A DNA stretch of 64,000 nucleotides, from assembly GCA_016198905.1 (NCBI GenBank), contig JACQHR010000032.1, forward strand, positions 74,390 through 138,389. The letters run 5' to 3'. Both the position numbers and the translations under genes were made by a program. Shown here one piece after another: positions 1,273-50,585 of this stretch. Under the pieces are notes generated by a model. That model did no database searches, had not been told where the DNA came from, and saw nothing but the letters and a program-made list of their open reading frames with translations. This DNA is from Candidatus Omnitrophota bacterium. GTDB lineage: Bacteria; Omnitrophota; Gorgyraeia; Aquiviventales; Aquiviventaceae. Position 1 is the first letter of the stretch; every line of letters begins with the position of its first letter.

Positions 1273-1781
1273 CGTTTCACGTTTCAGGTTTCACGTTTCA
1301 CGTGACGGACGATGACAACCGTACAGCGATTTGAACAATTGGAAGCTTGGCAGAGAGCACGGGAACTTGCCCAAGAGGTTTATGCGATCACAGGGAAGGG
1401 TTCCTTTGCAAAGGATTTTATCCTCAGAGACCAAATTCGGCGAGCTGCGGTTTCGGTTGTCGCGAATATCGCAGAGGGATTTGAGCGCAGCGGCCGAGGT
1501 GAGTTCATCCAATTTCTTGCCGTGGCCAAGGGTTCAGTCGGAGAGTTGAGGTCGCATGTATACATTGCTCACGATCAGGGGTATCTCAGCAAGGCCGAGT
1601 TTGAGCGGTTAAGCGATCTCGCCATCCGGACCGCACAGTTGGTAGGCGGGCTGATGAATTATCTGAGAGGGTCTAGCATTAAAGGCACCAAGTTCAAGAA
1701 GGTTGTCGGACTGAGTGTTGTTTCCACGCGAGGCGACTTTGCCCAACGTGAAACCTGAAACGTGAAACGCGAAACGAAACG
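1273..1781 (+). repeat. E1: heptamer-armed palindromic cassette carrying a four-helix-bundle gene
   Basis: Left arm 1274-1304 is GTTTCAC GTTTCAG GTTTCAC GTTTCAC GTG. Right arm 1747-1781 is CGTGAAAC CTGAAAC GTGAAAC GCGAAAC GAAACG. 1273-1295 is a perfect 23-nt reverse complement of 1747-1769. The cassette starts 4 nt after the upstream TAG and ends at the ATG of the next GT2. Confidence 0.9.
1312..1758 (+). CDS. Four-helix-bundle protein (23S rRNA intervening-sequence protein / S23p family, TIGR02436-like)
   Basis: FEQLEAWQRARELAQEVY...RDQIRRAAVSVVANIAEGFERSG..EFIQFLAVAKGSVGELRSH matches the family hallmark (W-Q-A...ANIAEG...A.GS..E). The stop TGA lies inside the right arm of E1. Confidence 0.85.
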   Translation: MTTVQRFEQLEAWQRARELAQEVYAITGKGSFAKDFILRDQIRRAAVSVVANIAEGFERSGRGEFIQFLAVAKGSVGELRSHVYIAHDQGYLSKAEFERLSDLAIRTAQLVGGLMNYLRGSSIKGTKFKKVVGLSVVSTRGDFAQRET

Positions 1782-8933: not shown

Positions 8934-11464
8934 GGATTGTGATTGTGGCACCAGAGGTGTTTCCGGTTCCACCGATCCGAGGCGGGGCGGTGGAGACCGT
9001 CATCGAGGAAATCTCCGCGCAGTTCCGTGACCACAAGGTAACCATTCTCGGCATTGCCGACGCGTCACTGCCGGTGCAAGAGACGAAGGAGCATCGGACA
9101 TATCGCCGTTGGAAGCGCACGGTCATTGATCGACTCTTGCTCTCGACGTGGAAGCTGCCGTTCAAACAGAGCAACTCGCCGTGGTACTACTGGCCCTACC
9201 AGCATTGGATCGCCAGGCAGGTGCAACGGCTGCGTCCCGACGTCGTGTGGGTGCACAGCCGCATCCAATTTGCGCCGGCGATTCGCCGCGCCGCCCCTCA
9301 CGCGCGGATGATCGTCAGCGTCCATCAACTGAGCACGCTGCGCGATGAGCGCGTCTGGCAGCAAGCGCGCGTCGCGTGTTGTGATGTGATCGCCGGTGTC
9401 AGCCAATTCATGATCGAGGCCATCGCTGCGCGGTATCCATGGACGCAACCCAAGACGCACGTGCTCTCAAACGGCGTTGACGTGACAGCCTATCAGCCGT
9501 GGTGGGCGCAGTCGGCCAGGCGCGAGCGGATGCGCCGCGAGCAGGGCTGGGGTGACGCGCCGGTGATCTTGTATGCCGGGCGGCTCGTCGAGCAAAAGGG
9601 CGTGCATGTGCTCGCCGATGCTTTCAAACAACTGGTAAGGGGTGAGGGGCGGGAGACAGGGGGCGCGGGATCCAACACGAAACCAATGCTGGTCATTGCC
9701 GGCGGCCACACGTACTCCGATGGGACAGAAACCGACTATATCAGGCAGTTGAAGCGCACGCTTGAGCCGCTGGGATCGCAGGTCGTCTGGCTGGGGTATC
9801 AACCGTCGAGCGCGCTGGTGAGCCTGTACGCGGCCAGCGACGTCGTCGTCGTCCCATCAATCAATCCGGAAGCGTTTTCCATGGTCACGGTTGAAGCGAT
9901 GGCCTCGGGTCTGCCGGTCGTTGCCTTCGCGCACGGCGGCCCAGCGGAGATCATTCGCCACGGCATCGATGGGTTCTTGGTGCCGGTCTCCCGCGGCGCG
10001 GAGGGTCTGGCCGAGGCGCTGCAAGCGTGCGTCAGCAACACCACCCTGCGGGAAGCCATCGGCCGCGAGGCCAGACGGACGGTAGAGGAGCGCTTTACGT
10101 GGCAGCGTGTGGCAGAGAGCTTCCTCAAATTGACTCAGGGACAAGGGACAGGGGACAGGGGGCGAGGGAATGCCCTTCCTACGCCCCGCGCCCCGCGCCC
10201 CGCGCCCCAGACACGCGCCGTCCCTATTCTTATTGCTGAGTCAGGATCAGGCTACGGAGGCAGCGCGAAATACCTCAGCGAGCTGGTGTCGCTGCTGGAT
10301 CGGCGACGCTTCCACGCGCAGGTGGTGGCGGCTGAAGAGGGGCCGTTCATTCGCAAGGTCAAAGAGCAGGGAGTGCCAGTAGCACTGAGGCCAAGTTGGA
10401 GATTCGCTTGGGGGCAGGGGGCGGGAGACGAGGGGCGGGGGAAGGGCCAGCACACAGCACTCAGCACGAACGTGAAACATGAAACGCGAAACGTGAAACG
10501 AACGTCGCATGTCCGGTTCGCGCTGGTTGCTGCTACACAGCTTTTGATCATGGTTCCAGCAATTGCCCTCTGGTTGAAGTGGCGGAGGATCCGGCTGGTG
10601 CATCTGAATAACGAGATCCTCTCGCACGTGCCGCTGGCGCTCGGAGCGAAACTCGCCGGCTGCCGCGTGGTGTGCCACCTGCACGGCTGGCGTCCGTTCA
10701 CGAGGCTGGAGCGCGCTGTGGCCGGTGTCGTTGATGAGTTCGTCTGCATTTCGGAGGCTGGCGCGCGGTACTTCGAATCGCAACTGCCGCATCGCCGGGT
10801 GGCCGCGATTCCCAACGGTATTCTGCTCAATGGTCAGTTGGACGGCCTTGACGTGAAACGAGCGCAGGTCCGTCGGCAGTTGGGGATCCAGCCCCATGAC
10901 GCGGTCATCGCCATCATCGGGCGCTTGGTGCCGTGGAAAGGCCAGGCAGTGTTCTTGAAGGCGTTGGCGGATGTCAGCCAGCGACACCCGGACGTGGTCG
11001 GCCTCATCGTGGGGCACGATGCCTCGCCAGGGCAGAGCTATCTGACACAGTTACAGTCGACTGCGCGTGAGCACGGCCTCGCTGAGCGTGGGCGCGTGCA
11101 CTTTGTCCCGTGGCTCGAGGACGTGTGGGGCATTTATGCCGCGGCGGACATCATCGTGCACGCTTCGACGCAGCCGGAGCCGTTCGGACTCGTGCTCATT
11201 GAAGCGATGGCGGCGGGCAAGCTCGTGATTGCCACGCGATCCGGTGGAGTCGTCGATATCGTCACGGATGGCCGGACAGGACTGCTGGTTGAGCCGGGCG
11301 ATCCGGATGGGCTGGCGCGCGCCATCACGCAGGTGGTGACTGATCCTTCGCGCGCCGCTGCGCTGGCTGAGGCCGGCCGGCAGCGCGCGCGAGACGTGTT
11401 CACCATGGAGCGCAACGCGCAGGCAGTCGCGCAGGTCTATCAGCGGCTGATGGTGTGCCGATGA
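8930..11464 (+). CDS. Double GT4 glycosyltransferase (two complete GT-B modules joined through element E3)
   Basis: Module 1: MRIVIVAPEVFPVPPIRGGAVE...VVPSINPEAFSMVTVEAMASGLPVVAF. Module 2: ILIAESGSGYGGSAKY...ASTQPEPFGLVLIEAMAAGKLVIATRSGG. ATGA overlap at 8930. Contains E2, E3 and E4 in frame. Confidence 0.85.
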   Translation: MRIVIVAPEVFPVPPIRGGAVETVIEEISAQFRDHKVTILGIADASLPVQETKEHRTYRRWKRTVIDRLLLSTWKLPFKQSNSPWYYWPYQHWIARQVQRLRPDVVWVHSRIQFAPAIRRAAPHARMIVSVHQLSTLRDERVWQQARVACCDVIAGVSQFMIEAIAARYPWTQPKTHVLSNGVDVTAYQPWWAQSARRERMRREQGWGDAPVILYAGRLVEQKGVHVLADAFKQLVRGEGRETGGAGSNTKPMLVIAGGHTYSDGTETDYIRQLKRTLEPLGSQVVWLGYQPSSALVSLYAASDVVVVPSINPEAFSMVTVEAMASGLPVVAFAHGGPAEIIRHGIDGFLVPVSRGAEGLAEALQACVSNTTLREAIGREARRTVEERFTWQRVAESFLKLTQGQGTGDRGRGNALPTPRAPRPAPQTRAVPILIAESGSGYGGSAKYLSELVSLLDRRRFHAQVVAAEEGPFIRKVKEQGVPVALRPSWRFAWGQGAGDEGRGKGQHTALSTNVKHETRNVKRTSHVRFALVAATQLLIMVPAIALWLKWRRIRLVHLNNEILSHVPLALGAKLAGCRVVCHLHGWRPFTRLERAVAGVVDEFVCISEAGARYFESQLPHRRVAAIPNGILLNGQLDGLDVKRAQVRRQLGIQPHDAVIAIIGRLVPWKGQAVFLKALADVSQRHPDVVGLIVGHDASPGQSYLTQLQSTAREHGLAERGRVHFVPWLEDVWGIYAAADIIVHASTQPEPFGLVLIEAMAAGKLVIATRSGGVVDIVTDGRTGLLVEPGDPDGLARAITQVVTDPSRAAALAEAGRQRARDVFTMERNAQAVAQVYQRLMVCR
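9637..9669 (+). repeat. E2: solo G-rich arm inside GT4 module 1
   Basis: AAGGGGTGAGGGGCGGGAGACAGGGGGCGCGGGA matches the left-arm consensus and is translated in frame as RGEGRETGGAG. No C-rich partner follows. Confidence 0.8.
10136..10208 (+). repeat. E3: G-arm/C-arm palindromic element fusing two GT4 cistrons
   Basis: Left CAGGGACAAGGGACAGGGGACAGGGGGCGAGGG, loop AATGCCCTTCCTA, right CGCCCCG x3 + CGCCCC. Translated as GQGTGDRGRGNALPTPRAPRPAP with no stop. Confidence 0.85.
10410..10504 (+). repeat. E4: chimeric three-block heptamer element inside GT4 module 2
   Basis: G-arm GGGGGCAGGGGGCGGGAGACGAGGGGCGGGGGAAGGG, then CAGCACA CAGCACT CAGCACG, then AACGTGA AACATGA AACGCGA AACGTGA AACGAAC (the E1-type GTGAAAC arm). 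In frame as GQGAGDEGRGKGQHTALSTNVKHETRNVKRT. Confidence 0.85.
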
Positions 11465-12957
11465 GCGTCGTCAACCAAACCGCAGCCCGCGCAGGCGCAC
11501 GCGCCATACCCCCGCTGCACACCGTGGTCGACCGCCGCATCTGGACGTTTGTCGCGCTCATCGGATTCCTCGGCTGGCTCGTCATGAAGGAAATCACGCT
11601 GCCCTCCGGTCTCATGGCGGCTTGTGCGGGGCTGGGATTGCTCGGGCTGTTCATGGTCAGCGTCCAGCGGCCGGAGCTGTCGCTGTACGTGCTCGTGGCA
11701 TACCTGCCGTTCAGCCGGCTCCTCGTCGGAGATTTCGGCACCGAAGCGTACGCCTTCAACCTCACGAACATCCTGACGCTGTGGGTCCTTAGCGCCTATG
11801 TGCTGCGTTGCATGTCGCAAGGCCGGCAGCCCTTCCAATCCGCCCCGATGAGTCGCCTCGTCCTGGCGTTCTGCGCGCTGAGCGGATTCTCGCTGCTGCA
11901 GGGAGGCTTTGCGTACGGCTCCTGGTACTTCTGGCATTACCTCACTCCGCTGAAGCAGTGGCTGACGCCGATCTTCTTTTACTTTCTGGCGCTCTGGGTG
12001 GTGCGGGATCGGAAAGTTCTCAAGACGGTCGTGGTGCTCATGATGGTCGCCGTCACGGTGGTAGCGCTCATGGCGATCCGGGACTATCTGAACAACTCGG
12101 GCAGCAGCCTCGAGAAATCCCGGGTCGGCGGGATCGCCGAGCAGCCCAACACGCTGGGGGCGTTCTTCGTGTACTACATGTTCTTGTTCGCCGGCTTCTT
12201 CCTGACCTATCGCAAGAAGTTCAAGGTGTGGGGGCTGCTCGTTCCCTTTCTGCTGTGTTTCCGCGGCATCATGGTGACATTTTCCCGCGGGGCCTATTTC
12301 GGATTCGCCGCCGGCGGCCTCGGAGCGTGTTGGCACCGCAATAAGGCGCTGTTTGTGGTCGCCGCCGCGCTGTTATGGTTTGCCGTCATGAATCCCTGGA
12401 TGCTGCCGAAGGGGATTCGGTATCGGATGGGGCAAACCGTCGTCAGCCACGGCAGCGACAACGCACCGGGCGACGCGCCGATCGAGGATACCTTGGAAGC
12501 CAGCGCCGGAAACCGCGTGCGCATTTGGCGGGCGACCATCGAGATGATCAAGGACCATCCGTGGTGGGGGGTGGGCTACGGGGCGTTTCCCGCCTACATC
12601 GGGGTGTACACCGGCGGGCACTTCGAGGCGGTCGATGCCCATAACACGTATTTGCTCCTTGCCGCCGAGTTGGGGATCCCAATACTGGTCGTGTTCTGCG
12701 TGGTGATCCTCGTGGCGTGGTATCACACCAGGCGACTCTACCTGGGGACCCACGACTTCGCTATGAAGGCCATCACCCTAGGTTTCCTCGCCGGGCTGGA
12801 AGGGCTCATTGTGGTGAACATGTTCGGCTCGCGGATGGATGACCAGGCGGTCAGCAGCTACTTTTGGATCTTGTGCGGCCTCATCATGCGCGGCGTGTTG
12901 ATCGAGCGGGAAGAGATGTTGGGGGCATGGGGCGCGAGACGTGGGGCGAGGGCATAG
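11461..12957 (+). CDS. O-antigen ligase / Wzy-like polytopic membrane protein (paralog 1)
   Basis: About 10 or more hydrophobic segments. Central GIMVTFSRGAYFGFA and periplasmic-loop ...HNTYLLLAAELGI (Wzy_C-like). ATGA overlap with the upstream gene. The C-terminal tail LGAWGARRGARA is encoded by the E5 left arm. Confidence 0.8.
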   Translation: MSVVNQTAARAGARAIPPLHTVVDRRIWTFVALIGFLGWLVMKEITLPSGLMAACAGLGLLGLFMVSVQRPELSLYVLVAYLPFSRLLVGDFGTEAYAFNLTNILTLWVLSAYVLRCMSQGRQPFQSAPMSRLVLAFCALSGFSLLQGGFAYGSWYFWHYLTPLKQWLTPIFFYFLALWVVRDRKVLKTVVVLMMVAVTVVALMAIRDYLNNSGSSLEKSRVGGIAEQPNTLGAFFVYYMFLFAGFFLTYRKKFKVWGLLVPFLLCFRGIMVTFSRGAYFGFAAGGLGACWHRNKALFVVAAALLWFAVMNPWMLPKGIRYRMGQTVVSHGSDNAPGDAPIEDTLEASAGNRVRIWRATIEMIKDHPWWGVGYGAFPAYIGVYTGGHFEAVDAHNTYLLLAAELGIPILVVFCVVILVAWYHTRRLYLGTHDFAMKAITLGFLAGLEGLIVVNMFGSRMDDQAVSSYFWILCGLIMRGVLIEREEMLGAWGARRGARA

Positions 12958-12997
12958 TCATATGCCAACCATACCCCCACCCCCCGCCCCCCGCCCC
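12919..12997 (+). repeat. E5: palindromic element with upstream stop and downstream start codon in its loop
   Basis: Left TTGGGGGCATGGGGCGCGAGACGTGGGGCGAGGG, loop CATAGTCATATGCCAACCATA (TAG 12955-57, ATG 12962), right CCCCCACCCCCCGCCCCCCGCCCC. Confidence 0.85.
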
Positions 12998-14344
12998 ATA
13001 CTTGGTTGTATCTTGAGTCAATTCCCGCGATACGATGAGGCGTTCATTCTGCGCGAGCTTGTCGCGTTGTCGCAGGACTCGCCGCGGCTCGTGATCTTCT
13101 CGCTGCGTCCGTGCCGCGATCGCGTGATCCACGAGCAGGCGAAAGCCCTGCAGCCGCAGACAGTCTACGCGCCCTTCGTGTGGTCATGGCAGGTCTGGCG
13201 CAGCCACGCGCATGTCCTTCAGCACAATCTGAGAGGATATCTTCGCGCGCTTGGATGGATCATCAGCCGGCATTGGCGGCATCCGGTGATTCTGGTGAAG
13301 ACGCTGGCATTTTTCCCAAAGACCGTGCACTTCGCGAGGCTGGCCCAACAGCGGGGCGTCACGCATGTGCATGCGTTTTGGGCGACGTACCCGGCGGCGG
13401 CGGCGATGATCATGCGTGAGCTGACCGGCATCCCATTTAGCATGTCCGGCCACGCGCATGATATTCACACGATCAATCCGACGCTGACCGAGAAGATGCA
13501 GCATGCGCGCTTTGTCGTGACCTGCACGCAGGCGAATCGTGACTATTTGTTATCGTTAGTCAATAGTCATGGGGCAAGGGGCGGGAGACAGGGGGCAGGG
13601 ACAACCAAAACTATTGTGGAAGGTTTTTCCACGCCCCCCGTCCCCCGCCCCCCGTCCCATGTTATGGTGAGCTACCACGGCGTCGATCTTTCCCGCTTCG
13701 CCGCGCGGCCGAAGGATCACGGGCCGGTGTGCCGGATCCTCGCGGTGGGCAGCCTGTTGCCGTGCAAAGGGTATGAGACGCTGATTGAGGGCTGCACGCG
13801 GCTGCGTGAGCGCGGCGCGGCGTTTCACGTGACCATCGCCGGCGGCGGGCCGCTCGAACGCGCGCTGCGCCAGCGGATCGCGAAGCATGCGCTTACGCAG
13901 CAGGTGACGATGACGGGCTTTGTCAGCCAGGAAACGGTCGCAGCGCTCTATCAGCAAGCGCACCTCGTGATCCTGCCCTTGGTGTCCAAGATCCATTGGG
14001 GCATCCCGAACGTCCTGATCGAAGCGCTGGCTACGAAGACGCCGGTCATCTGCTGCGATCTGCCGTCGATGCGCGAGCTGGTGGTGCACGGCGAAAGCGG
14101 CTGGATCATCCCTGAGAACGACCCCAACGCGTTAGCGACTTCAATCGTGACGCTCTGGAAAGACGCCGCGTTGCGGCAGCGGATCGCCGACGCAGGGTAT
14201 CAGCGCGTGGTCGAGCGGTTTTCGCTGGAGGAAACTGGACGAAAGCTACGAGAGATCTTTAGTCAGGGGCAGGGGGCGGGAGACAGGGGGCAGGTGCAGA
14301 CCGATTTTCCCGCGCCCCGCGCCCCGCGCCCCAAAGTTCCTTAA
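12962..14344 (+). CDS. Glycosyltransferase family 4
   Basis: GT-B C-domain: ...ILPLVSKIHWGIPNVLIEALATKTPVICCDLPSMRELV. Start ATG lies in the E5 loop (alternative GTG 12941). Contains E6 in frame, and E7 forms its C-terminal tail. Confidence 0.8.
   Translation: MPTIPPPPAPRPILGCILSQFPRYDEAFILRELVALSQDSPRLVIFSLRPCRDRVIHEQAKALQPQTVYAPFVWSWQVWRSHAHVLQHNLRGYLRALGWIISRHWRHPVILVKTLAFFPKTVHFARLAQQRGVTHVHAFWATYPAAAAMIMRELTGIPFSMSGHAHDIHTINPTLTEKMQHARFVVTCTQANRDYLLSLVNSHGARGGRQGAGTTKTIVEGFSTPPVPRPPSHVMVSYHGVDLSRFAARPKDHGPVCRILAVGSLLPCKGYETLIEGCTRLRERGAAFHVTIAGGGPLERALRQRIAKHALTQQVTMTGFVSQETVAALYQQAHLVILPLVSKIHWGIPNVLIEALATKTPVICCDLPSMRELVVHGESGWIIPENDPNALATSIVTLWKDAALRQRIADAGYQRVVERFSLEETGRKLREIFSQGQGAGDRGQVQTDFPAPRAPRPKVP
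13568..13661 (+). repeat. E6: palindromic element in frame inside GT4
   Basis: Left CATGGGGCAAGGGGCGGGAGACAGGGGGCAGGG, 30-nt loop, right ACGCCCCCCGTCCCCCGCCCCCCGTCCCATG. Translated as HGARGGRQGAGTTKTIVEGFSTPPVPRPPSH. Confidence 0.85.
14264..14332 (+). repeat. E7: palindromic element forming the C-terminal tail of GT4
   Basis: Left CAGGGGCAGGGGGCGGGAGACAGGGGGCAGG, loop TGCAGACCGATTTTCC, right CGCGCCCCGCGCCCCGCGCCCC. Translated as GQGAGDRGQVQTDFPAPRAPRP, followed by the TAATG junction at 14342-14346. Confidence 0.85.
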
Positions 14345-15204
14345 TGGCCATTCTGCGCACAGTCCTCAGCGATATCACCTATCATGCGAGGCGATTGACA
14401 CCTGGCGATGGAGAAGGATTGCGCATCCTGATGTACCATCGCGTCACCGATGCGCATCCCGGGAATCGGCTGTGCGTGCCGGTGGCGCGGTTTGCGGATC
14501 AGATGCGGTGGCTGGCGGAGCAGGGGTACCGCACAATCTCATTCGCTGAGGCGGTGGAGTTAGTGAGGGGGCAGGGGGCAGGGGGCGGGAGACGGGGGAA
14601 TAGCCGACAAGCAGAATCTGCGGCATTCCCTCGCCCCGCGCCCCGCGCCCCGCGCCCCAAACTGATTGTCCTGACATTTGATGACGGCTTCGAGGATAAT
14701 TTTCTCTACGCCTATCGCGCGCTGGCGCAGTACGGCTTCACCGGCTGCTTCTTCGTGCCAAGTGCCTTTATCGCGTCCGGACAAACCGGGCATGAGGCGG
14801 TCGATCAACCGATGAGCTGGGCGCAATTGAGTGAGCTCGCACGGGAAGGCCACGAAGTAGGAGCGCATTCGATCAGCCACGCGAAGCTCACACACATTGA
14901 TCCGGTGCAGATGCGCGAGGAAGTGCGAGGATCGAAAGAAGCGATCGAGCAAGGACTGCAGCAGCCCGTGAGATTCTTCTGTTACCCGTCGGGTGACTAT
15001 AATGCGGCCGTGAAACAGGCGGTGCGCGACAGCGGCTACGACGGGGCGTGCACCGTGGAGCCGGGCGCGAACCGTTCCGGGGCTGATCCCTTTGCGTTGA
15101 CACGCACGGAGATCAGCGCGTTTGATTCGCTGTGGGATTTTGAGAAGAAGATCGCGGGCGCGTTTGATTGGATGCATCGCGTCGTCCAATGGACGAAACG
15201 ATGA
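14344..15204 (+). CDS. Polysaccharide deacetylase (CE4/NodB-type), paralog 1, with in-frame E8 insertion
   Basis: LTFDDGFEDN, GAHSISH and YPSGDYN motifs. TAATG 1-nt overlap with the upstream gene. Confidence 0.85.
   Translation: MAILRTVLSDITYHARRLTPGDGEGLRILMYHRVTDAHPGNRLCVPVARFADQMRWLAEQGYRTISFAEAVELVRGQGAGGGRRGNSRQAESAAFPRPAPRAPRPKLIVLTFDDGFEDNFLYAYRALAQYGFTGCFFVPSAFIASGQTGHEAVDQPMSWAQLSELAREGHEVGAHSISHAKLTHIDPVQMREEVRGSKEAIEQGLQQPVRFFCYPSGDYNAAVKQAVRDSGYDGACTVEPGANRSGADPFALTRTEISAFDSLWDFEKKIAGAFDWMHRVVQWTKR
14565..14658 (+). repeat. E8: palindromic element in frame inside the deacetylase
   Basis: Left GAGGGGGCAGGGGGCAGGGGGCGGGAGACGGGGG, loop AATAGCCGACAAGCAGAATCTGCGGCATT, right CCCTCGCCCCGCGCCCCGCGCCCCGCGCCCC. 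Translated as GQGAGGGRRGNSRQAESAAFPRPAPRAPRP. Confidence 0.9.
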
Positions 15205-16466
15205 TCAGACATCAGACCTCAGACATCAGACCACAGTCGGACTCAAGACCCAAGACCCAAGACCCAACAGGTGCATTTTCAGCCCCGAGTCTTGAGTCCC
15301 GAGTCTTGAGTCCCGAGTCTCGGGTCCCAGTGAAGGTCATATTCATCATTTGGTCGCTTGGATTAGGCGGCGCAGAACAGGTTGTGATCCGGTTAGCAGC
15401 CGGGCTTGATCGTCGCCGATTCGCGCCGATCATTTGCTGCATGAACGAGCCCGGGCCGTTTGCCACGCAAGCGATCAGCCGCGGCATCGAGGTGATTGCG
15501 CTGCATAAGCGCGGCGCGATCGATCTGGGCATGCTGATCAGGCTCACGCGCGTGATGCGGCAGCGTCGGCCCGGCATCGTGCACACGCATCTGTGGGGCG
15601 CCAGCTTCTGGGGGCGTCTCGCGGCGCGTCTGGCGCGCGTCCCGGTAGTCATCGTCCATGAGCACGGCATGCAGCCCTATCGCGGGGCCTTCCATTTTTT
15701 CTGCGATCGATGGTTAGCGCGGGTCACGTCGCGCATCCTGTTTGCCTCGCAGCACGTCCTGCAGATCTACCGGGCAAAGACGGCCGTCGCGGAATCCAAG
15801 TGCATGGTGATTCCGAATGGTGTCGCGGTGTTACGGCTGCCGGATCGAATCGCGGCTAGGCGCGCGCGCGGATGGTCGCCGGACGATCAAGTGATCCTCA
15901 GCGTCGGGCGGCTCTCGCCGGAAAAAGGCTATGAGGATTTGCTGAAGGCCTTCGCGCTCATCGCTTCCCGCGCGCCGCACGCGCGGCTGGTGCTCGTGGG
16001 AGATGGCGCGCAACGCGCGGCGCTTCAGACGCTGCAGGCGCAGTCAGGGCTCAATGGCCGCGTGACGTTTGCGGGCCGGCAAGAGGATGTCACGGGATGG
16101 CTGGCCGCGGCGGATCTCTACGTGCAGCCCTCGCATCGAGAAGGGCTGCCGCTGGCGGTGCTGGAGGCGATGGCCGCCGGCGTGCCGGTGGTGGCCACCG
16201 ACGTCGGCGATCTGCGCTACGTCATCACCGAGGGACGCACCGGCTACCTCGTGCCGGCCCGGCAGCCGGACACGCTGGCTGCGCGATTGGTCGACGTCCT
16301 GGAACATCCCGAGCAACAGCCGCGCATCGCCGAGGCCGCGCGAGCGCTCGTGCGCACGCGCTTCTCCGACGAACAGATGATCCGCGCCATTGAGCGCGTG
16401 TATGAGGACGAGCTGTCGTGTTGGGGCAAGGGGCAGGAGACGGGGGGCGGGGGAGGGAACCGCTGA
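15201..16466 (+). CDS. Glycosyltransferase family 4
   Basis: VKVIFIIWSLGLGGAEQVVIRLAAGL... and QPSHREGLPLAVLEAMAAGVPVVATDVGD. ATGA overlap at 15201. The first ~43 codons are E9 heptamer repeats, so the true start could be later (e.g. GTG 15331). Confidence 0.8.
   Translation: MIRHQTSDIRPQSDSRPKTQDPTGAFSAPSLESRVLSPESRVPVKVIFIIWSLGLGGAEQVVIRLAAGLDRRRFAPIICCMNEPGPFATQAISRGIEVIALHKRGAIDLGMLIRLTRVMRQRRPGIVHTHLWGASFWGRLAARLARVPVVIVHEHGMQPYRGAFHFFCDRWLARVTSRILFASQHVLQIYRAKTAVAESKCMVIPNGVAVLRLPDRIAARRARGWSPDDQVILSVGRLSPEKGYEDLLKAFALIASRAPHARLVLVGDGAQRAALQTLQAQSGLNGRVTFAGRQEDVTGWLAAADLYVQPSHREGLPLAVLEAMAAGVPVVATDVGDLRYVITEGRTGYLVPARQPDTLAARLVDVLEHPEQQPRIAEAARALVRTRFSDEQMIRAIERVYEDELSCWGKGQETGGGGGNR
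15205..15328 (+). repeat. E9: variant heptamer element (different unit sequences)
   Basis: TCAGACA TCAGACC TCAGACA TCAGACC; then ACTCAAG ACCCAAG ACCCAAG ACCC; loop GGTGCATTTTCAG; then GAGTCTT GAGTCCC GAGTCTT GAGTCCC GAGTCTC GGGTCCC. GGACTCAAGAC is complementary to GTCTTGAGTCC. Confidence 0.8.
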
Positions 16467-16495
16467 ATGCGGAACGCGGAGTGCGGAATCGAGGA
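16422..16495 (+). repeat. E10: G-rich arm followed by a TGCGGAA heptamer block (no C-arm)
   Basis: TGGGGCAAGGGGCAGGAGACGGGGGGCGGGGGAGGG ... TGCGGAA CGCGGAG TGCGGAA TCGAGGA. The GT4 stop TGA 16464-66 lies between the two blocks. Confidence 0.8.
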
Positions 16496-16540
16496 AGCAA
16501 TTGAGACCTAACGCGAAGCGAACGTCACGTTGGGGCGGCG

Positions 16541-18025
16541 ATGAGGAGTGACGCGGTCTTGCCGGCAGCGATGGTGAGGCGCCTGCTGCCCGAGGTGGAT
16601 GAGCGGGCGTGGATGTTCGTGCTCGCGATCGGCGCCTTCGCCGTGTTGGGGCTCAAAGAGATGCCGTTATCGGCACCCCTGGTCTTGGGTCTCTTCGCTG
16701 CCGGTGTGGTCGGGTTGATTGCGGCCGGCTGGCTGGGACCCGAAGCACCGCTGTACGCGCTCATCGCGTACTTGCCCTTCAGCGGGCTGCTGGCCGGTGG
16801 CGCGTCCATCCCGTTTCTCAACCTGACGAATTTGCTTATCCTACTCATCGTGGTCAGCCACATTTGGCGGCAGCGTCGGAATGAGCTGCAGGTCTTGACG
16901 TCTGCGCCGATGAATGCGGTCATCGCGCTTTTCGCCGCGCTGGCGGTTCTGTCGTGGATGCGCGCCGGATGGATGTATGGCGGCTGGTACGCGTCGACGC
17001 ATGCCGTGGCTCTCTTGCGTTGGCTGCGCCCGATGGCGTTCTACTTCGTGGCGCTGTGGGCCGTGCGGGATGCGCGCGCACTAAAGACCGTGCTTGCGCT
17101 CATCGCGGTGGCGGTGACGGTCGTCGCGCTGATGGCGCTGTGGGAGTATCTCGATCGCGCCGGCAGCACCATCGAGCGCTCGCGCGTGCAGGGAATCGCC
17201 GGCGAAGCCAACCGCATGGGGGCGTTCTTCGTGACGTACATGTTCCTGTTCCTTGGCTATTTCTTCGTGACACCGCTGCGTCGCTACGGGTGGCTGATGC
17301 TCGTGCCGTTTCTCTTGTGCGTGCGCGGCATCATGGTGACCTTCTCGCGCGGGGCGCATGTGGCGTTCGCTGCGGGGGTGCTCGTCGCTTGTTGGATGCG
17401 CAGCAAGTGGCTCTTCGTGGTTGCGGCCGCCGCCGCGGCATTCATCATCACGCATCCGGCCCTGCTGCCGGGAGGATTTCGCACCCGCATCGAGCAGACC
17501 ATTCGTCCTGGTCAGCGACTCGACCTGGACGCCGGCACCTCGCAGGAGCTCTCGCGGCAATTGGAGCCCAGCGTCGGGCGACGGGTTGAAGCATGGAACG
17601 GCGGCTTGGCGATGGTGCGCGCGCATCCCTGGGTTGGCGTCGGGTTCGGAGGATTCCGGCGGTTCATTCCCCACTACACGCAGGGCCGAGTGAGCTCCAT
17701 GGCGGCGCACAACACGTACCTGTGGCTGGCGTCGGAGATGGGCATCCCCACGCTGCTGGTGTTTCTGCTGTTTCTCGACCTGCTGGCGTACCACACGGTG
17801 TGGCTGTATCGGCACAGCCAGGATGTCTGGCTGCGGGCTCTTGGCCTTGGCGTGTTGGCCGGCGCCGCGGCGCTGTCTGTGGCCAACGGTTTCAGCGAGT
17901 GCCTCGATTCCTCCGAGGAGGTCGTGGGTTATTTCTGGATCCTCTGCGCGCTCGTCATGAGAGGCGTCCTGCTTGAAAAACAACAGGCTGGGGCAAGGGG
18001 CGTGAGACAGGGGGCGGGGGAATAG
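16541..18025 (+). CDS. O-antigen ligase / Wzy-like polytopic membrane protein (paralog 2)
   Basis: Collinear with 11461..12957 (e.g. GIMVTFSRGAHVAFAAG, AHNTYLWLASEMGIP). The tail GARGVRQGAGE is encoded by the E11 left arm. Confidence 0.8.
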   Translation: MRSDAVLPAAMVRRLLPEVDERAWMFVLAIGAFAVLGLKEMPLSAPLVLGLFAAGVVGLIAAGWLGPEAPLYALIAYLPFSGLLAGGASIPFLNLTNLLILLIVVSHIWRQRRNELQVLTSAPMNAVIALFAALAVLSWMRAGWMYGGWYASTHAVALLRWLRPMAFYFVALWAVRDARALKTVLALIAVAVTVVALMALWEYLDRAGSTIERSRVQGIAGEANRMGAFFVTYMFLFLGYFFVTPLRRYGWLMLVPFLLCVRGIMVTFSRGAHVAFAAGVLVACWMRSKWLFVVAAAAAAFIITHPALLPGGFRTRIEQTIRPGQRLDLDAGTSQELSRQLEPSVGRRVEAWNGGLAMVRAHPWVGVGFGGFRRFIPHYTQGRVSSMAAHNTYLWLASEMGIPTLLVFLLFLDLLAYHTVWLYRHSQDVWLRALGLGVLAGAAALSVANGFSECLDSSEEVVGYFWILCALVMRGVLLEKQQAGARGVRQGAGE

Positions 18026-18437
18026 CAATGCCTATGACGTCTGCAGCGATCACAACCTTCAAAGACCTTCGCGTCTGGCAGGAAGGCATCCAGTTGGTCA
18101 AGGAGATCTATGCCCTCTGCGTCAAATTGCCGAAGGAAGAACTCTACGGCTTAGCGAGTCAGATGAAGCGCGCGGCGGTGTCGGTTCCATCCAACGTAGC
18201 AGAAGGCCATGCTCGAAAACACCGCGCCGAGTACAGACAGTACGTGTATATTGCGATCGGCTCGCTTGCGGAACTCGAGACGCACGTGCTCATTGCTAAG
18301 GAGTTGAACTTGTCTAATGGTGATGAGCTGACCCCGGTCCTTACACGCATTGACCGTTTGCGAGGGATGTTGCTGACGCTCGGGAGACGACTCGGATGAC
18401 GCCGTCCCCTCGCCCCTCGCCCCTCGCCCCTCGCCCC
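17989..18437 (+). repeat. E11: G-arm/C-arm palindromic cassette carrying a second four-helix-bundle gene
   Basis: Left TGGGGCAAGGGGCGTGAGACAGGGGGCGGGGG (17989-18020). Right (CCCCTCG)x4 + CCCCA (18406-18437). About 25 of 32 positions are complementary by hand alignment. Confidence 0.9.
18028..18399 (+). CDS. Four-helix-bundle protein (23S rRNA intervening-sequence protein family), second, divergent copy
   Basis: FKDLRVWQEGIQLVKEIY...QMKRAAVSVPSNVAEGHARKH..EYRQYVYIAIGSLAELETH. Starts 2 nt after the ligase TAG and has an ATGA overlap with the next GT4. Confidence 0.85.
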   Translation: MPMTSAAITTFKDLRVWQEGIQLVKEIYALCVKLPKEELYGLASQMKRAAVSVPSNVAEGHARKHRAEYRQYVYIAIGSLAELETHVLIAKELNLSNGDELTPVLTRIDRLRGMLLTLGRRLG

Positions 18438-20717
18438 ATTCGCGTGATGTTCGTGATCTGGTCGCTCGGCCTCGGCGGAGCGGAGCAGGCGGTGATCCGG
18501 CTGGCCGCGGGCCTTCGGCGCGAAGGGTTCGAGCCGTTGATCTGCTGTCTCAACGAGCCGGGTCCCTTCGCTGTGCAAGCGCAGGCCGCCGGCGTGCCCG
18601 TCGTGGCGCTGCACAAACGGTGGCGCTATGACGCGCGCGTGCTCTGGCGCTTGATGCGGTTGATGCGGCAGTGGCATCCGGACGTCGTGCACACGCATCT
18701 GTGGGGCGGCAACGCGTGGGGGCGGACGGCGGCCTGGCTGGTGGGTGTTCCGGTCATCGTCACGAGCGAGCGGAATCTGGATCCTTGGAAACGCTGGTAC
18801 TATTTTGTGATCGACCGCGTGCTCGCAGCGCGGACCACGACGTTGCTGGCCGTCTCCGAGTCCGTGCGGGCGTTCTACGAGCAGCACGGGGTCGGCCGCG
18901 GCCGCTGGCAAGTCTGCTACAACGGCGTCGATATCGCCGACGTAACACCCCGGCAGCGAGGAGCCGTGTTCGCGCAACTGGGCGCGCAGCATGGCGAGCC
19001 GGTCGTCGGCTTCATCGGACGCTTGGCTTCGGCAAAGGCTCCGGATGTGTTCGTCGAGGCGGTCGCACAGGCGCGCCGAACACTCCCTTCGCTGAAAGCG
19101 CTCATCGTCGGCGACGGGCCGCTGCGCAGCGAGGTTGAAGCCTTGGCGCGTCGATTGGGATTGGATGGGCATCTCGTGGTGACCGGCGTGCGCGAGGATA
19201 TCCCGGAGCTGCTGGCGGGGATGGACGCGCTGATGGTGTCGTCCGAGCGCGAGGGGCTCTCCATGGCGATGTTGGAGGCCATGGCGGCAGGAGTCCCGGT
19301 TATCGCGACTCGAGTAGGAGGCACTCCTGAACTCATCGAGCCGGGGATGACCGGACTGCTTGCGCCTCCAGGCGCGCCCGACGCATTGGCGCGCCAGTTG
19401 GTGGCACTCCTGACCAATCCCGCGCACGCGCAGGCCATTCGCGATGCGGCCCGCGCGCGAGTGGCGAAGGATTTTTCCATGCAGCGCGTGGTGGCGACGC
19501 ATGCAGCAGTGTACCGCCGCGGCCTCAAGCAGGCCAACCGTGCAGGACTCAGTGATCGCGTCAAAGAGGCGGCGGCATCGCTTCCCATCGCTCACCGCGC
19601 TCGCCTCCGCGTCATGCATGTCATCGACGATCTCGGACTCGGAGGCGCGCAGCGGCAGCTCGTGGAGCTCGTCAAGGCGTTCCCGCGGGATCGCTATGAG
19701 CTGCACGTTGTGAGTCTCTCGACGACGAAGACGGACTACGCGGAGGCGCTCCACGCAGCGGAGATTCGCCTGACGCAAATCCCGCAGGCCGGCAAATGGG
19801 ATGGCCGTTGTTTTTCGACGCTCTCCACGCTGATCAAAACCGAGAAGCCTTCCATCGTCCACACGTGGCTCTTTACCGCCGACCTCTATGGCCGCATGGC
19901 GGCGTGGGTGGCGCATGTGCCGGTCATCATCAGCGCGGTGCGCAGTGTGGAGCCGGATAAGCCCGCGCACTACGTCGTGGTGGATCGCGTCCTGCGCAAC
20001 ATCACCAGTGCCTTCACCGTCAATGCGCGCGCGATTGGCGAGGTGCTGACGGCGCGCGAGCATGTGCCGACGGAGAAGATTCATACGATCTATAACGGGC
20101 TCGATCTGCGCGCCCTGGATCCATCCCGCGTGAATGGAGCGATTCGGCGCGCCATCGCCGTCGGCGCCGACGTCCCCCTGATCGGGATCGTCGGGCGTCT
20201 AGCGCCGGTGAAGGATCACGCCACGTTTCTGCGCGCGGCAGTGCGCGTGCATCGTGAAGCGCCACAGGCGCGGTTTCTCATCGTCGGCAACGGTTTGCTT
20301 CACGGCGAGCTCGAGCAGTTGAGCCAATCATTGGGCCTGAGCGATGTCGTTCGCTTTCTCGAGAGCCAATCCAACGTAGCCGAGGTGTTCGCCGCGCTCG
20401 ATGTCGTCGTCGTGTCCTCCCTCTATGAAGGCTGCTGCAACGTGATCCTCGAAGCGATGGCGATGGGCAAGCCCGTGATCGCCACAGCCGTCGGGGGCAA
20501 TCCTGAGCTCATCAGCGACGGGCAAACCGGGCTGCTCGTGCCCGTGGGCGATGATGCGAAGCTGGCCGAGGCGATGGTGAGCCTGCTGCGTGATCCGCAG
20601 CGCGCGCAGGCGATGGGCCGCTCGGGGCGAGCGCGCGTGGAGTGCGACTTCGCCATCGAGCGGATGGTCGTCGCAACCGATCGCGTCTATCAGAAACTGT
20701 TGAGTCGCGCCCCATGA
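18396..20717 (+). CDS. Double GT4 glycosyltransferase (natural tandem fusion, no element at the joint)
   Basis: Module 1: IRVMFVIWSLGLGGAEQAVIRLAAGL...SSEREGLSMAMLEAMAAGVPVIATRVGG. Module 2: LRVMHVIDDLGLGGAQRQL...SSLYEGCCNVILEAMAMGKPVIATAVGG. The N-terminal MTPSPRPSPLAPRP is the E11 right arm (alternative ATG 18447). Confidence 0.85.
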   Translation: MTPSPRPSPLAPRPIRVMFVIWSLGLGGAEQAVIRLAAGLRREGFEPLICCLNEPGPFAVQAQAAGVPVVALHKRWRYDARVLWRLMRLMRQWHPDVVHTHLWGGNAWGRTAAWLVGVPVIVTSERNLDPWKRWYYFVIDRVLAARTTTLLAVSESVRAFYEQHGVGRGRWQVCYNGVDIADVTPRQRGAVFAQLGAQHGEPVVGFIGRLASAKAPDVFVEAVAQARRTLPSLKALIVGDGPLRSEVEALARRLGLDGHLVVTGVREDIPELLAGMDALMVSSEREGLSMAMLEAMAAGVPVIATRVGGTPELIEPGMTGLLAPPGAPDALARQLVALLTNPAHAQAIRDAARARVAKDFSMQRVVATHAAVYRRGLKQANRAGLSDRVKEAAASLPIAHRARLRVMHVIDDLGLGGAQRQLVELVKAFPRDRYELHVVSLSTTKTDYAEALHAAEIRLTQIPQAGKWDGRCFSTLSTLIKTEKPSIVHTWLFTADLYGRMAAWVAHVPVIISAVRSVEPDKPAHYVVVDRVLRNITSAFTVNARAIGEVLTAREHVPTEKIHTIYNGLDLRALDPSRVNGAIRRAIAVGADVPLIGIVGRLAPVKDHATFLRAAVRVHREAPQARFLIVGNGLLHGELEQLSQSLGLSDVVRFLESQSNVAEVFAALDVVVVSSLYEGCCNVILEAMAMGKPVIATAVGGNPELISDGQTGLLVPVGDDAKLAEAMVSLLRDPQRAQAMGRSGRARVECDFAIERMVVATDRVYQKLLSRAP

Positions 20718-26383: not shown

Positions 26384-26456
26384 GACGCGGGGCAGGAAAA
26401 ACCAAATTTGGTATTGAGGATTTTCCCACGCCCCGTGCCCCCGTCTCCCGCCCCTT
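26366..26456 (+). repeat. E12: palindromic element at the giant-protein / deacetylase junction
   Basis: Left AAGGGGCAAGGGGCATGAGACGCGGGGCAGG. The loop has a GGAAAA...TTTTCC clamp and an internal CCAAATTTGG palindrome. Right CACGCCCCGTGCCCCCGTCTCCCGCCCCTT. Confidence 0.85.
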
Positions 26457-27265: not shown

Positions 27266-27341
27266 AGGGAGCGTGGGGCGTGGGGCGTGGGGCGTGGGAA
27301 AACCGCTTTTCCCTCGCCCCCCATCTCCTGTCCCTTGCCCC
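27266..27341 (+). repeat. E13: palindromic element at the deacetylase / GT2 junction
   Basis: Left AGGGA + (GCGTGGG)x4. Inner clamp GGGAAAA-CCGC-TTTTCCC (27296-27313). Right CTCGCCCCCCATCTCCTGTCCCTTGCCCC, which is close to the reverse complement of the E10-type G-arm. Confidence 0.85.
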
Positions 27342-27349
27342 AATCTGTG

Positions 27350-36417: not shown

Positions 36418-36631
36418 GCCCAGCATGTGGACATGACGAGGAGGTGCAAGTCCTCTGAGGGAGCAGGTCGCAGCGACCTCAAGCGAACCGCAAGGCGACG
36501 ACCGTGAGGTCGGCGCTGAAAGAAGCGGGGAGCGAAGCCGCGCGTCGACGAACAGGAACCGGATACGAGGCGAAGCCGGCCAGCGAATTCTGGGGACAAT
36601 ACGGAATTCTGTTTTGGGGCGGTCGCTTGAG

Positions 36632-49385: not shown

Positions 49386-50585
49386 ATGGCACAACGCTTA
49401 TTGACCCAACCGATCCCCGCTCCGCTTGACGCTCTGAGGAGAGCATGGTATCCTACCAAGTTCCAGACCTCCCCTCGTCGTCAAAAACCAACTGGTGTTC
49501 GGATGGTTCCATCGAATCGACATAGTGATGAGTGGGCACAGCTCTTCGATGTGGCGCCATGCGGATTGGTGTTGATTGATAACCACGCCGTGATTCAGTT
49601 ATTCAACCCAACCGCATTTCGGCTACTTGGTCTCGAGGATCAAGACGTCATTGGGCAATCATTGCTTGACGTGCTGCCGACCTGGAAAGACACTCCGTTC
49701 TACGCCAGCCTTCCGTCGTTCTTCGGTGCTCAATCCACGTTTGAGTGCATGGAGTTCGACATTCCGAGCCCCAACAACAAACGTCTGCGCGTCTCCGCGG
49801 CATTTGTCCCGAACGGCTCCGAGCATGCTCGCGGGGTCTTGCTGACCATTACCGAGAGCGCCGATGTGGCCAGCCTTGAGCAACGGCTGCACCGGGCTGA
49901 GTACCAGGCATCAATCGGCAAGCTCGCACGCGGCATTGCGCATGAGCTGAACAGCCCGCTCGACGGCGTACTGCGCTACACGCACTTGGCCCTGGAACAC
50001 CTGACCGAAGATTCGCCGGTGCGCGAGTATCTGGTCCATGTCAAGGAAGGATTGGATCGTATGGTGCGCGCGGTTCGCGCCTTCCTTGAGTTCTCCCGCC
50101 AAGTCACCACCCCGGTCAATCGCCTCGCGAATCTCAACCAATTGGTTGATGATGCGCTCCTCTTAGTCCAACATCGCGCCAAGTTCCAGCAGATTCGGGT
50201 CGTCAAGCGGCTGGATGACGGGCTGCCGGCTGTCCTCGATGGAGGGCTGCAGCACGCCATTGTGAATCTCATCAAGAACGCCTTTGATGCCATGCCGCGA
50301 GGGGGCACGCTTACGATTACGACGCGGGCGACGAATGAGCATGTGCATGTCGATGTCGAGGACACCGGGTCCGGCATTCCCGAAGAAATCCGCCCCAGAA
50401 TTTTCGAGCCGTTTTTCTCCACCAAACCGATTCATCAGGGCAGCGGGTTGGGATTGATCATCGCCAAGGAAGTGTTGGAGCGTTCGGGCGGCAGCATCGA
50501 ATTTACCAGCCAATCCGGCGTGGGCACGACCTTCCGCGTGCACGTGCCCATCGCCCCCATTGAGGCCAAGCCGCATGGATCGTAG
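49386..50585 (+). CDS. Soluble PAS sensor histidine kinase
   Basis: PAS-like LFDVAPCGLVLIDNHAVIQLFNPTAFRLLG. H-box ARGIAHELNSPL. N/G boxes NLIKNAFDAM, DTGSGIPEEI, GSGLGL. Alternative start at 49503. Confidence 0.85.
   Translation: MAQRLLTQPIPAPLDALRRAWYPTKFQTSPRRQKPTGVRMVPSNRHSDEWAQLFDVAPCGLVLIDNHAVIQLFNPTAFRLLGLEDQDVIGQSLLDVLPTWKDTPFYASLPSFFGAQSTFECMEFDIPSPNNKRLRVSAAFVPNGSEHARGVLLTITESADVASLEQRLHRAEYQASIGKLARGIAHELNSPLDGVLRYTHLALEHLTEDSPVREYLVHVKEGLDRMVRAVRAFLEFSRQVTTPVNRLANLNQLVDDALLLVQHRAKFQQIRVVKRLDDGLPAVLDGGLQHAIVNLIKNAFDAMPRGGTLTITTRATNEHVHVDVEDTGSGIPEEIRPRIFEPFFSTKPIHQGSGLGLIIAKEVLERSGGSIEFTSQSGVGTTFRVHVPIAPIEAKPHGS

Follow-up and report, generated by a model that had tools for sequence, protein, structure and literature searches.

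In this study, we analyzed a stretch of 64,000 nucleotides from a Candidatus Omnitrophota bacterium (contig JACQHR010000032.1 of assembly GCA_016198905.1, positions 74,390 to 138,389; hereafter the window), in which a small four-helix-bundle gene, the cargo of a unit called E11, lies between the gene of an O-antigen-polymerase-like protein (Wzy) and a GT4 glycosyltransferase gene. We are confident that E11 is an inserted cassette of the intervening sequence (IVS) type, approximately 450 nt long, in which a single four-helix-bundle gene is carried between inverted arrays of about four heptamers. The fuller explanation, in which this inserted cassette is also chained into the operon, behaves like a passenger and has arms that form a stem, is in our opinion probable. 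The recurrence of the same design around most of approximately 180 sampled relatives suggests a widespread, largely undescribed insertion cassette, and E11 itself is best filed as an S23p-type intervening-sequence element that sits in a protein-coding operon and is wired into the translation of that operon.

Structure of the E11 Cassette

The whole E11 unit occupies 17989-18438 on the forward strand (450 nt). Its left, G-rich arm (TGGGGCAAGGGGCGTGAGACAGGGGGCGGGGG, 17989-18020), which was found by inverted-repeat detection and by a consensus scan, has one mismatch with the 26-nt consensus of its family, GGGGCAAGGGGCGGGAGACAGGGGGC. The right, C-rich arm (18406-18438, tandem-repeat and inverted-repeat detection) consists of (CCCCTCG)x4.6 followed by CCCCA, and the array at 18406-18437 is perfect (TRF score 64, 100% matches). 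As an inverted repeat, 17989-18020 and 18407-18438 form 32-nt arms that are 78% complementary and lie 386 nt apart.

Both arms are read as protein by the neighboring genes. The upstream gene (16541..18025, forward strand) encodes the Wzy_C/O-antigen-polymerase-like membrane protein (Pfam PF04932, E=4.9e-21), and its last 12 codons, from 17990 onwards, are encoded by the left arm; the tails of Wzy orthologues part from it at the very point at which the arm begins. The stop codon TAG of Wzy (18023-18025) is placed inside GAATAGC, and the cargo ATG follows 2 nt on, at 18028; the 3' G run of the left arm is 7 nt upstream of this ATG and may take the position of a Shine-Dalgarno-like site for the cargo. 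At the other end, the sequence has an ATGA stop/start overlap (18396..18399, forward strand), where the TGA that ends the cargo (18397-18399) shares nucleotides with the start ATG (18396-18398) of the downstream gene, a double GT4 glycosyltransferase by Pfam (18396..20717, forward strand). A preliminary description of the window had already placed the Wzy tail in the left arm, the TAG in AATAGC, the cargo ATG 2 nt later, the ATGA overlap, and the right arm in the first 14 codons of the glycosyltransferase, and our coordinates agree with it; codons 1-14 are MTPSPRPSPLAPRP, and the arm itself makes up codons 4-14. By BLASTP, the likeness of this glycosyltransferase to the protein of a related operon (L083) begins at residue 12 (PRPIRVMFVIWSL), which indicates that the first 11-14 residues or so are an element-encoded extension. 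No promoter-like or terminator-like sites were found within the cassette, and Rfam gave no known RNA family at the cassette and no rRNA in the window.

The cargo open reading frame (ORF; 18028..18399, forward strand, 123 aa) encodes a four-helix-bundle protein that belongs to the S23p/23S_rRNA_IVP/TIGR02436 family, which is related to Avd. The assignment comes from profile and structure-database matches: Pfam PF05635 23S_rRNA_IVP at E=1.5e-34, NCBIfam TIGR02436 'four helix bundle protein' at 110 bits, above the curated cut-offs, and PDB 2GSC (XCC0516) at E=1.5e-21. The RxxxSxxxNxxEG motif reported for the family (PMC3936711) is intact in the cargo (R48, S52, N56, E59, and G60), and these residues are invariant or nearly so in the homologue alignment. 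A metagenome-assembled genome of Candidatus Omnitrophica has an identical protein of 121 aa on record (P0001), for which the NCBI gene call starts 2 codons later, at 18034; we favored 18028 as the start in view of how long the homologues are and of its distance of 7 nt from the G run. In composition, the cargo is foreign to its surroundings, with a GC of 54.8% and a GC at third codon positions (GC3) of 66%, compared with 65-66% and 79-82% in the neighbor genes and 61% G+C in the whole window. A defense or phage function was rejected: the known defense protein models of PADLOC matched neither the cargo of E11 nor that of its sister cassette E1, and the PHROG Avd profile was not reached by the E11 cargo and was reached only weakly by the E1 cargo (6.4e-05).

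The inverted repeat was compared with chance in two ways. The flank score, which is the best local alignment of the 150-nt upstream flank with the reverse complement of the 150-nt downstream flank, was 30 for E11 and 16.8 +/- 3.0 at 2000 random same-spacing positions of the window, of which 0.4% reached 30. The duplex of the arms had an energy of -59.1 kcal/mol with 33 pairs (27 GC, 3 AU, and 3 GU), whereas shuffles of the arm composition gave -46.1 +/- 4.7 kcal/mol, and 0.6% of them reached the observed energy. Much of the pairing energy is therefore compositional, as a G-rich arm is set against a C-rich one, and the pairing is real but partly compositional. Arrays of period 7 were present in 20/751 sub-windows of the window, and arrays of periods 4-6 and 8-11 in none.

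Relatives with and without the Cassette

One relative of the locus is the Logan contig L081, whose Wzy gene is 92.8% identical in DNA over 1426 nt. This homology ends at 17986, 3 nt before the arm; after its end, L081 (1462-1506) has an ATGA stop/start overlap of its own and then another array, (AGACCGG)x3. The window and L081 also differ at the junction upstream of Wzy. Among close relatives, judged from these two sequences, the Wzy 3' junction is hypervariable. When metagenomes were scanned for a 23-nt motif from the 3' end of Wzy that the window and L081 share, no match was obtained. In L083 and L082, which are related operons from Omnitrophota with a Wzy that is 52-54% identical, the GT4 gene, Wzy, and the next gene are joined by 4-nt overlaps, with no cassette, no arms, and essentially no heptamer arrays. 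These comparisons show that the Wzy|glycosyltransferase junction gained or exchanged the unit after the split from the approximately 93%-identical relative.

The 26-nt left-arm consensus had 11 forward-arm copies in the window, compared with approximately 0 in shuffles; different host ORFs translate it in phases 0, 1, and 2. Since the arm is read in three phases, its conservation as protein is excluded. The possibility that the arms are conserved merely as protein sequence, which the preliminary description had named as a way in which it could fail, is also contradicted by their absence in L081 and in L082/L083.

Other Cassettes and Arm Copies in Omnitrophota

The closest homologues of the cargo (66-73% identical) are in other Omnitrophota contigs, at four other host junctions: YggS|ProC (L001, L086/87, and L092), an unidentified upstream gene|Wzt ABC transporter (L084/85/91), an unidentified upstream gene|UDP-glucose dehydrogenase (L088), and UDG|PriA (L089/90/93). 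The same arm family surrounds the cargo at differing host junctions (L001, L084, L086/87, L088, L089/90, L092, and L094), the left arm being GGGGCAAGGGGC.GAGAC..GGGG and the right arm C-rich heptamers ending in CCCCTTGCCCC or CCCCA; comparison of these loci shows that arms and cargo are inherited together. At all four of these other sites, the downstream gene's start codon overlaps the cargo stop (ATGA, GTGA, or TAATG), and the gene reads from this start through the right arm in frame. With E11 included, 5/5 independent host sites are in frame, for which the chance is about (1/3)^5. Translational chaining is evidently a recurrent design of the sub-lineage and not a peculiarity of the E11 site, and it is possible because the arms are stop-free in every frame.

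The sister cassette E1 (1273..1776, forward strand) carries a divergent four-helix-bundle gene at 1312..1758 and has an inverted-repeat score of 51, compared with a control maximum of 32. Its arms are (CGTTTCA)x4.4 at 1273-1303 and (AACGTGA)x4.6 at 1745-1776. The two cargoes are 32-35% identical and the arm units differ; E11 is thus not a recent copy of E1, as had been proposed from the sequence at the outset.

Two points qualify the preliminary description, which had treated E11 as a cargo gene in a stem: the stem of E11 is imperfect, and its arm family is also frequent in the window without cargo. In the 64 kb, there are approximately 12 cargo-less copies of this family and 1 with cargo. One hairpin (14566..14660, forward strand, consensus scan and inverted repeat) lies in frame in the ORF of a polysaccharide deacetylase, where it falls at residues ~75-105, and its loop begins with GAATAGC, as does the sequence after the E11 left arm. 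Further cargo-less hairpins were found by the consensus scan at 10138-10209, 12918-12999, 13570-13660, 14265-14334, and 26366-26456, and on the minus strand at 27267-27345; the same scan found the G arm alone at 9639-9674, 10411-10445, and 16423-16465. The linkers between the domains of GT4 proteins hold several of the cargo-less copies in frame, and others are at gene ends or junctions. They may be non-autonomous or deletion derivatives, or landing pads that exchange cargo by recombination across the approximately 30-bp arms.

Other heptamer structures were also observed in the window. A hairpin at 15201-15330 is built from the heptamers (ATCAGAC), (GACCCAA), and (CCCGAGTCTTGAGT); it starts from an ATGA overlap with the deacetylase stop and makes up an N-terminal extension of approximately 51 residues of the GT4 protein encoded at 15168..16466, to which the L083 homologue aligns only from residue 53. 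A (GAATGCG)-type array (16456-16496) lies between this GT4 gene and Wzy. At 10448-10500, there are (CAGCACA) and (AACGTGA) arrays, the latter being the right-arm unit of E1, here without cargo. At 49848-49952 (forward strand), tblastn gave a weak likeness to the cargo (E=0.18, 38.6% over 44 residues), which may be either noise or what is left of a third, degraded four-helix-bundle gene. Rfam also reported group II intron domains D1-D4 (RF02001) at 36498-36612 (forward strand, 44 bits against a gathering score of 32); no same-strand ORF of at least 150 aa follows this match, which may be an ORF-less or truncated intron.

Flanking Repeats of Family Members across Bacteria

The homologue sample consisted of 80 loci from species-representative genomes of many phyla and 80 loci from metagenomes. 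In the genome set, a flank score counted when it was matched by no more than 1% of 100 same-spacing positions drawn at random from that locus (p<=0.01), and in the metagenome and viral sets, when it lay above the pooled 99th percentile of 6566 controls. Inverted repeats in the flanks were significant at 61/77 genome loci and above threshold at 60/66 metagenome loci, that is, at 121/143 cellular loci. Both paralogues of the window were positive as well. The preliminary description had regarded E1 and E11 as members of a real element class and had pointed to the flanks of other paralogues as the place to look; the recurrence of the design around most of the homologues sampled bears this out.

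Viral contigs gave a similar picture, with flank inverted repeats in 26/34 IMG/VR loci (L171-L204). The viral scan was meant to give armless Avd genes of diversity-generating retroelements (DGRs) as a control, and it returned cassette-type relatives instead; a crude motif scan of the 34 viral loci found no ORF resembling a reverse transcriptase (RT) within 2.5 kb. These contigs are possibly vehicles of horizontal spread, or they represent prophage or host contamination.

The arms are nearly always tandem heptamers, and their units vary by lineage (GTGACNA, TAGTGGY, GTGAAGC, GGGGTCA, CGAAAAC, CTTAAGG, and others). Period-7 arrays were present in 62% of the upstream and 52% of the downstream flanks of the genome set and in 82% and 85%, respectively, of those of the metagenome set, compared with 5% of the control windows, which is an enrichment of at least 10-fold. 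The copy number of the arrays had a median of 4.0 (interquartile range 3.4-4.4) and was rarely above 5. The neighboring long ORFs were on the same strand as the family gene in 77 cases and on the opposite strand in 6, on each side. Over 53 loci, the more similar the cargoes, the more similar the arms tended to be (Spearman 0.26, Mantel p<0.0005). Of the strong matches between arms, 22 were in the same orientation and 3 in reverse, and they included cross-phylum pairs such as Acidobacteriota/Chromatiales and Planctomycetota/Verrucomicrobiota.

The insertion sites of the relatives were also inspected. One cassette with (GTATTGN)-type arms lies between tRNA-Thr(TGT) and tRNA-Tyr(GTA) (L098, 1382-2001; also L097, 568-1045); the L098 cassette is thus inside a stable-RNA operon, as the rRNA intervening sequences are. 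None of the 20 homologue loci tested with Rfam, which included loci of the candidate phyla radiation (CPR), was in rRNA. No target-site duplication was detected over 74 cassettes, the longest flanking direct repeat having a mean of 1.42 against 1.39 +/- 0.14 for shuffled pairings, with cassette boundaries that are imprecise by a few nt, so that very short duplications could escape the test. The right arm often ends 2-5 nt before the downstream ATG (L104, L105, L109, L123, L132, L137, and others), which leaves no room for a conventional Shine-Dalgarno sequence. This spacing echoes that of the TAACTGA arrays of Beggiatoa, which end 1 nt before start codons (PMC4679880). In one homologue (P0031), an Arg/Pro/Gly-rich insertion of approximately 50 residues stands in the middle of the four-helix-bundle ORF (alignment columns ~107-158); possibly, a hairpin element is nested here within the gene of a cassette.

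Discussion

We propose that the cassette is a selfish or near-neutral passenger that keeps its polarity on the host operon minimal. Ribosomes that come from Wzy would go on to translate the cargo, the left-arm G run serving as the Shine-Dalgarno-like site, and the glycosyltransferase would be translated by termination-reinitiation at the ATGA. The arm-encoded peptides, that is, the 12-residue Gly/Arg tail of Wzy and the 11-14-residue Pro-rich head of the glycosyltransferase, would then be by-products. We incline to the view that this translational chaining is functional in E11. The arms would be the ends of the element. On transcripts that are not covered by ribosomes, they could pair (~33 pairs) and so become a substrate of RNase III, by analogy with the rRNA intervening sequences of Coxiella, Leptospira, and Salmonella, and the stem would perhaps be bound by the pentameric cargo, as the DGR relative Avd binds an RNA stem-loop. 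Whether a stem is indeed formed and processed in the mRNA context of E11 seems to us doubtful, if quite conceivable. The cargo-less hairpins would be related to E11 by recombination, as deletion derivatives or as landing pads.

Studies have shown that the four-helix-bundle family, named after the intervening sequences of 23S rRNA, has a member inside the IVS of Coxiella burnetii, which is 428-444 nt long (PMC4990558). Its terminal inverted repeats pair into a 28-bp stem, the S23p ORF lies inside, and RNase III cuts the stem at the first repeat; 2-3 tandem GACAGAT heptamers and a degenerate one stand just before the S23p ATG, with a copy number that varies between strains (PMC4990558). E11 resembles this IVS in its cargo family (PF05635/S23p), its length (~450 nt), its inverted-repeat stem (~33 pairs compared with 28 bp), and its tandem heptamers upstream of the ORF, the left arm of E11 being degenerate and the right arm perfect. 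Neither brings its own promoter, and each is seen as a selfish element obtained by horizontal transfer. Unlike the rRNA intervening sequences, E11 is not in the 23S rRNA (helix 9, 25, or 45) or in the 16S rRNA. It is intercistronic, in an operon of protein-coding genes, and translation of its arms gives one neighbor protein its tail and the other its head. The cargo of E11 is translationally coupled on both sides, whereas the S23p of Coxiella is seemingly not made. Excision by RNase III without religation has been demonstrated for the rRNA intervening sequences; for E11 it would be an analogy, and on a translated mRNA it would be damaging.

The other characterized relative is Avd of the diversity-generating retroelements, which is a pentamer and binds an RNA stem-loop; the DGR RNA duplex is made from sequences flanking the template (bioRxiv 10.1101/2023.10.23.563531). 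The E11 cargo has a four-helix-bundle fold homologous to that of Avd (PDB 4DWL), which forms a positively charged pentamer. Membership of E11 in a DGR was rejected, as there is no adjacent RT, template, or variable repeat and the neighbors are Wzy and GT4.

The arms themselves resemble known bacterial heptameric repeats, which have a unit of 7 and 2-6 copies, occur at gene junctions, often a few nt from a start codon, are sometimes inverted pairs, and are G-rich in some lineages. The STRR heptameric repeats of heterocystous cyanobacteria, said to have been described by Mazel in 1990, are one such case. Others are GGGAATC in Xanthomonas (~70 convergent pairs) and GGGGAYT in Nostoc (PMC4692102), as well as TAACTGA in Beggiatoaceae (PMC4679880). 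In a term search of these two papers (PMC4692102 and PMC4679880), no gene of the four-helix-bundle, S23, or intervening-sequence kind was seen to be mentioned between the arms. The functions proposed for such repeats are the formation of G-quadruplexes or the regulation of translation (PMC4692102, PMC4679880). As a general principle for the arms, the G-quadruplex was rejected, since most arm families in other phyla are not G-rich. By description, the cargo-less copies of the window are also like Rickettsia palindromic elements and the hairpins of MITEs (miniature inverted-repeat transposable elements) and REPINs, in that they are dispersed and in frame in ORFs. The Rickettsia elements, reportedly described by Ogata and colleagues in 2000, are said to be short dispersed palindromic repeats that are tolerated in frame in protein genes. 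Neither these elements nor MITE/REPIN repeats are known to have a heptamer substructure or a four-helix-bundle cargo, and REPINs have the RAYT transposase.

Several of our results weigh against E11 as an inserted cassette with stem-forming arms. As regards the insertion, contig L081 ends inside its (AGACCGG) array and the state of its junction is only partly visible; arrays of this kind probably break short-read assemblies. The Wzy of the cassette-free operons is only ~50% identical to that of the window, and their glycosyltransferase genes are not strict orthologues, so that L082 and L083 are a syntenic analogue and not a proven empty site. As regards the RNA stem, the fold of the whole E11 cassette was not stabler than that of shuffles (z = -1.09), and among the Omnitrophota elements of the arm family, own arms paired no better than swapped arms (permutation p = 0.15-0.19). 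Over 53 cassettes, G·U-compatible arm mismatches were not in excess of A·C mismatches (41 vs. 48, p=0.53), and thus no signature of selection on a sense-strand RNA stem was seen. Homogenization has made the right arm of E11 a pure array, in which the GAGAC core of the left arm is not mirrored any more. In addition, a mid-stem cut by RNase III would remove the Wzy stop and the downstream ATG, so that processing would be harmful unless translation keeps the stem open.

The same mismatches fit a serious rival, in which the arms have a DNA-level role as the ends of a transposon-like or MITE-like element. They would be terminal inverted repeats made of iterated protein-binding sites, with a recombinase or transposase encoded elsewhere; the RNA stem would be irrelevant, the four-helix-bundle gene a passenger, and the cargo-less hairpins the non-autonomous majority. 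The symmetry of G·U and A·C mismatches is as for neutrally decaying DNA repeats, the left-arm sequence with its GAGAC core is kept across the Omnitrophota copies, irregular heptamer variants are mirrored in both arms (e.g., L019 and L031), and the ratio of ~12 cargo-less copies to 1 cargo copy within 64 kb points the same way. However, E11 has the terminal inverted repeats of a cut-and-paste transposon or MITE and not the target-site duplication, which was not found over the 74 cassettes either (1.42 vs. 1.39 shuffled), and no transposase-like gene was present in or beside the cassettes inspected. The arm units differ wholly between sub-lineages, yet period 7 and about 4 copies are kept, and this is hard to reconcile with a single trans-acting recombinase. 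We consider this account possible, if rather unlikely. The copy number has also been taken into a model of cognate recognition, which by analogy with Avd would have the pentamer recognize its own heptamer arrays, approximately one heptamer per subunit, as RNA or single-stranded DNA, and work in trans on every array of the family, either to regulate itself or to propagate, maybe with a reverse transcriptase. The median of 4.0 copies, rarely more than 5, would suit the pentameric members of the family (PDB 2GSC and Avd), and Avd binds structured RNA and is needed by its RT. Arm similarity follows cargo similarity in a fixed orientation, and each of the two cargo types of the window has its own arm family, each of which is also present cargo-free. 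Co-inheritance explains the arm-cargo correlation equally well, no RT was seen beside the cassettes inspected (crude scan of the 34 viral loci and gene tables of 8 loci), and the S23p of Coxiella is apparently unexpressed and decaying (PMC4990558); we regard the model as improbable.

The tight translational integration on both sides could instead speak for a module that benefits the host, namely a regulator that the polysaccharide operon has domesticated, such as an RNase III site by which the stability of upstream and downstream mRNA is uncoupled, with a four-helix-bundle protein that takes part in polysaccharide synthesis. Copies of the sub-lineage in polysaccharide loci (L084 with the Wzt ABC transporter and L088 with UDP-glucose dehydrogenase) agree with this. 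Other copies are at YggS|ProC and UDG|PriA, between tRNA-Thr and tRNA-Tyr, and in rRNA (PMC4990558), and 23S_rRNA_IVP genes are also found between cas genes, where they have been read as functional partners (PMC3936711). The related operons, moreover, work without the cassette, and a host-beneficial role appears very unlikely to us. E11 could also be seen as a coincidence, a Gly/Arg-rich tail and a Pro-rich N-terminus that happen to be G-rich and C-rich in DNA beside an unrelated small gene, and the -46 kcal/mol of shuffled arms, which shows that the energy is largely compositional, is in its favor. Against the positional and shuffle controls, the missing arm in the 93%-identical relative, the same arms with homologous cargo elsewhere, the reading of the arm in three phases, and the design shared by 121/143 loci, coincidence is hardly credible and is effectively refuted.

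Returning to E11 as an inserted, operon-chained passenger cassette, we speculated on a broader class. The PF05635/TIGR02436 genes with inverted heptamer arrays may be a previously unrecognized, pan-bacterial class of transposase-less mobile cassettes, of which the rRNA intervening sequences would be copies that landed in rRNA, and the STRR, Xanthomonas GGGAATC, and Beggiatoa TAACTGA repeats and the in-gene hairpins would be cargo-less derivatives. In this proposal, the pentamer would recognize approximately 4-5 of its own heptamers and drive or license the spread, possibly through an RNA intermediate as with Avd. In its full extent, the proposal is tentative, and we would sooner expect it to fail than to hold. 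In the literature, our coverage of which was incomplete, no general description of a PF05635 gene with inverted heptamer arrays was found; only the Coxiella IVS paper mentions heptamers, and it does so locally.

In this genome, the G/C arms, being free of stops, illustrate the way in which such an element can be accommodated at coding sequence or even within it, by read-through and by new stop/start overlaps. One repeat gained or lost shifts the frame by one because 7 mod 3 = 1, and heptamer arrays could therefore tune or break gene fusions. PF05635/TIGR02436 is a large family of unknown function with many paralogues across most bacterial phyla, and its members have repeatedly been called 'associated' with the host operon. 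Should they be carried as cargo by a self-contained insertion cassette, such guilt-by-association inferences would need reconsidering, and three literatures, those on rRNA intervening sequences, heptameric tandem repeats, and the DGR protein Avd, would be joined. The broader result outweighs the single case of E11: most of the sampled family members carry inverted-heptamer arms across phyla.

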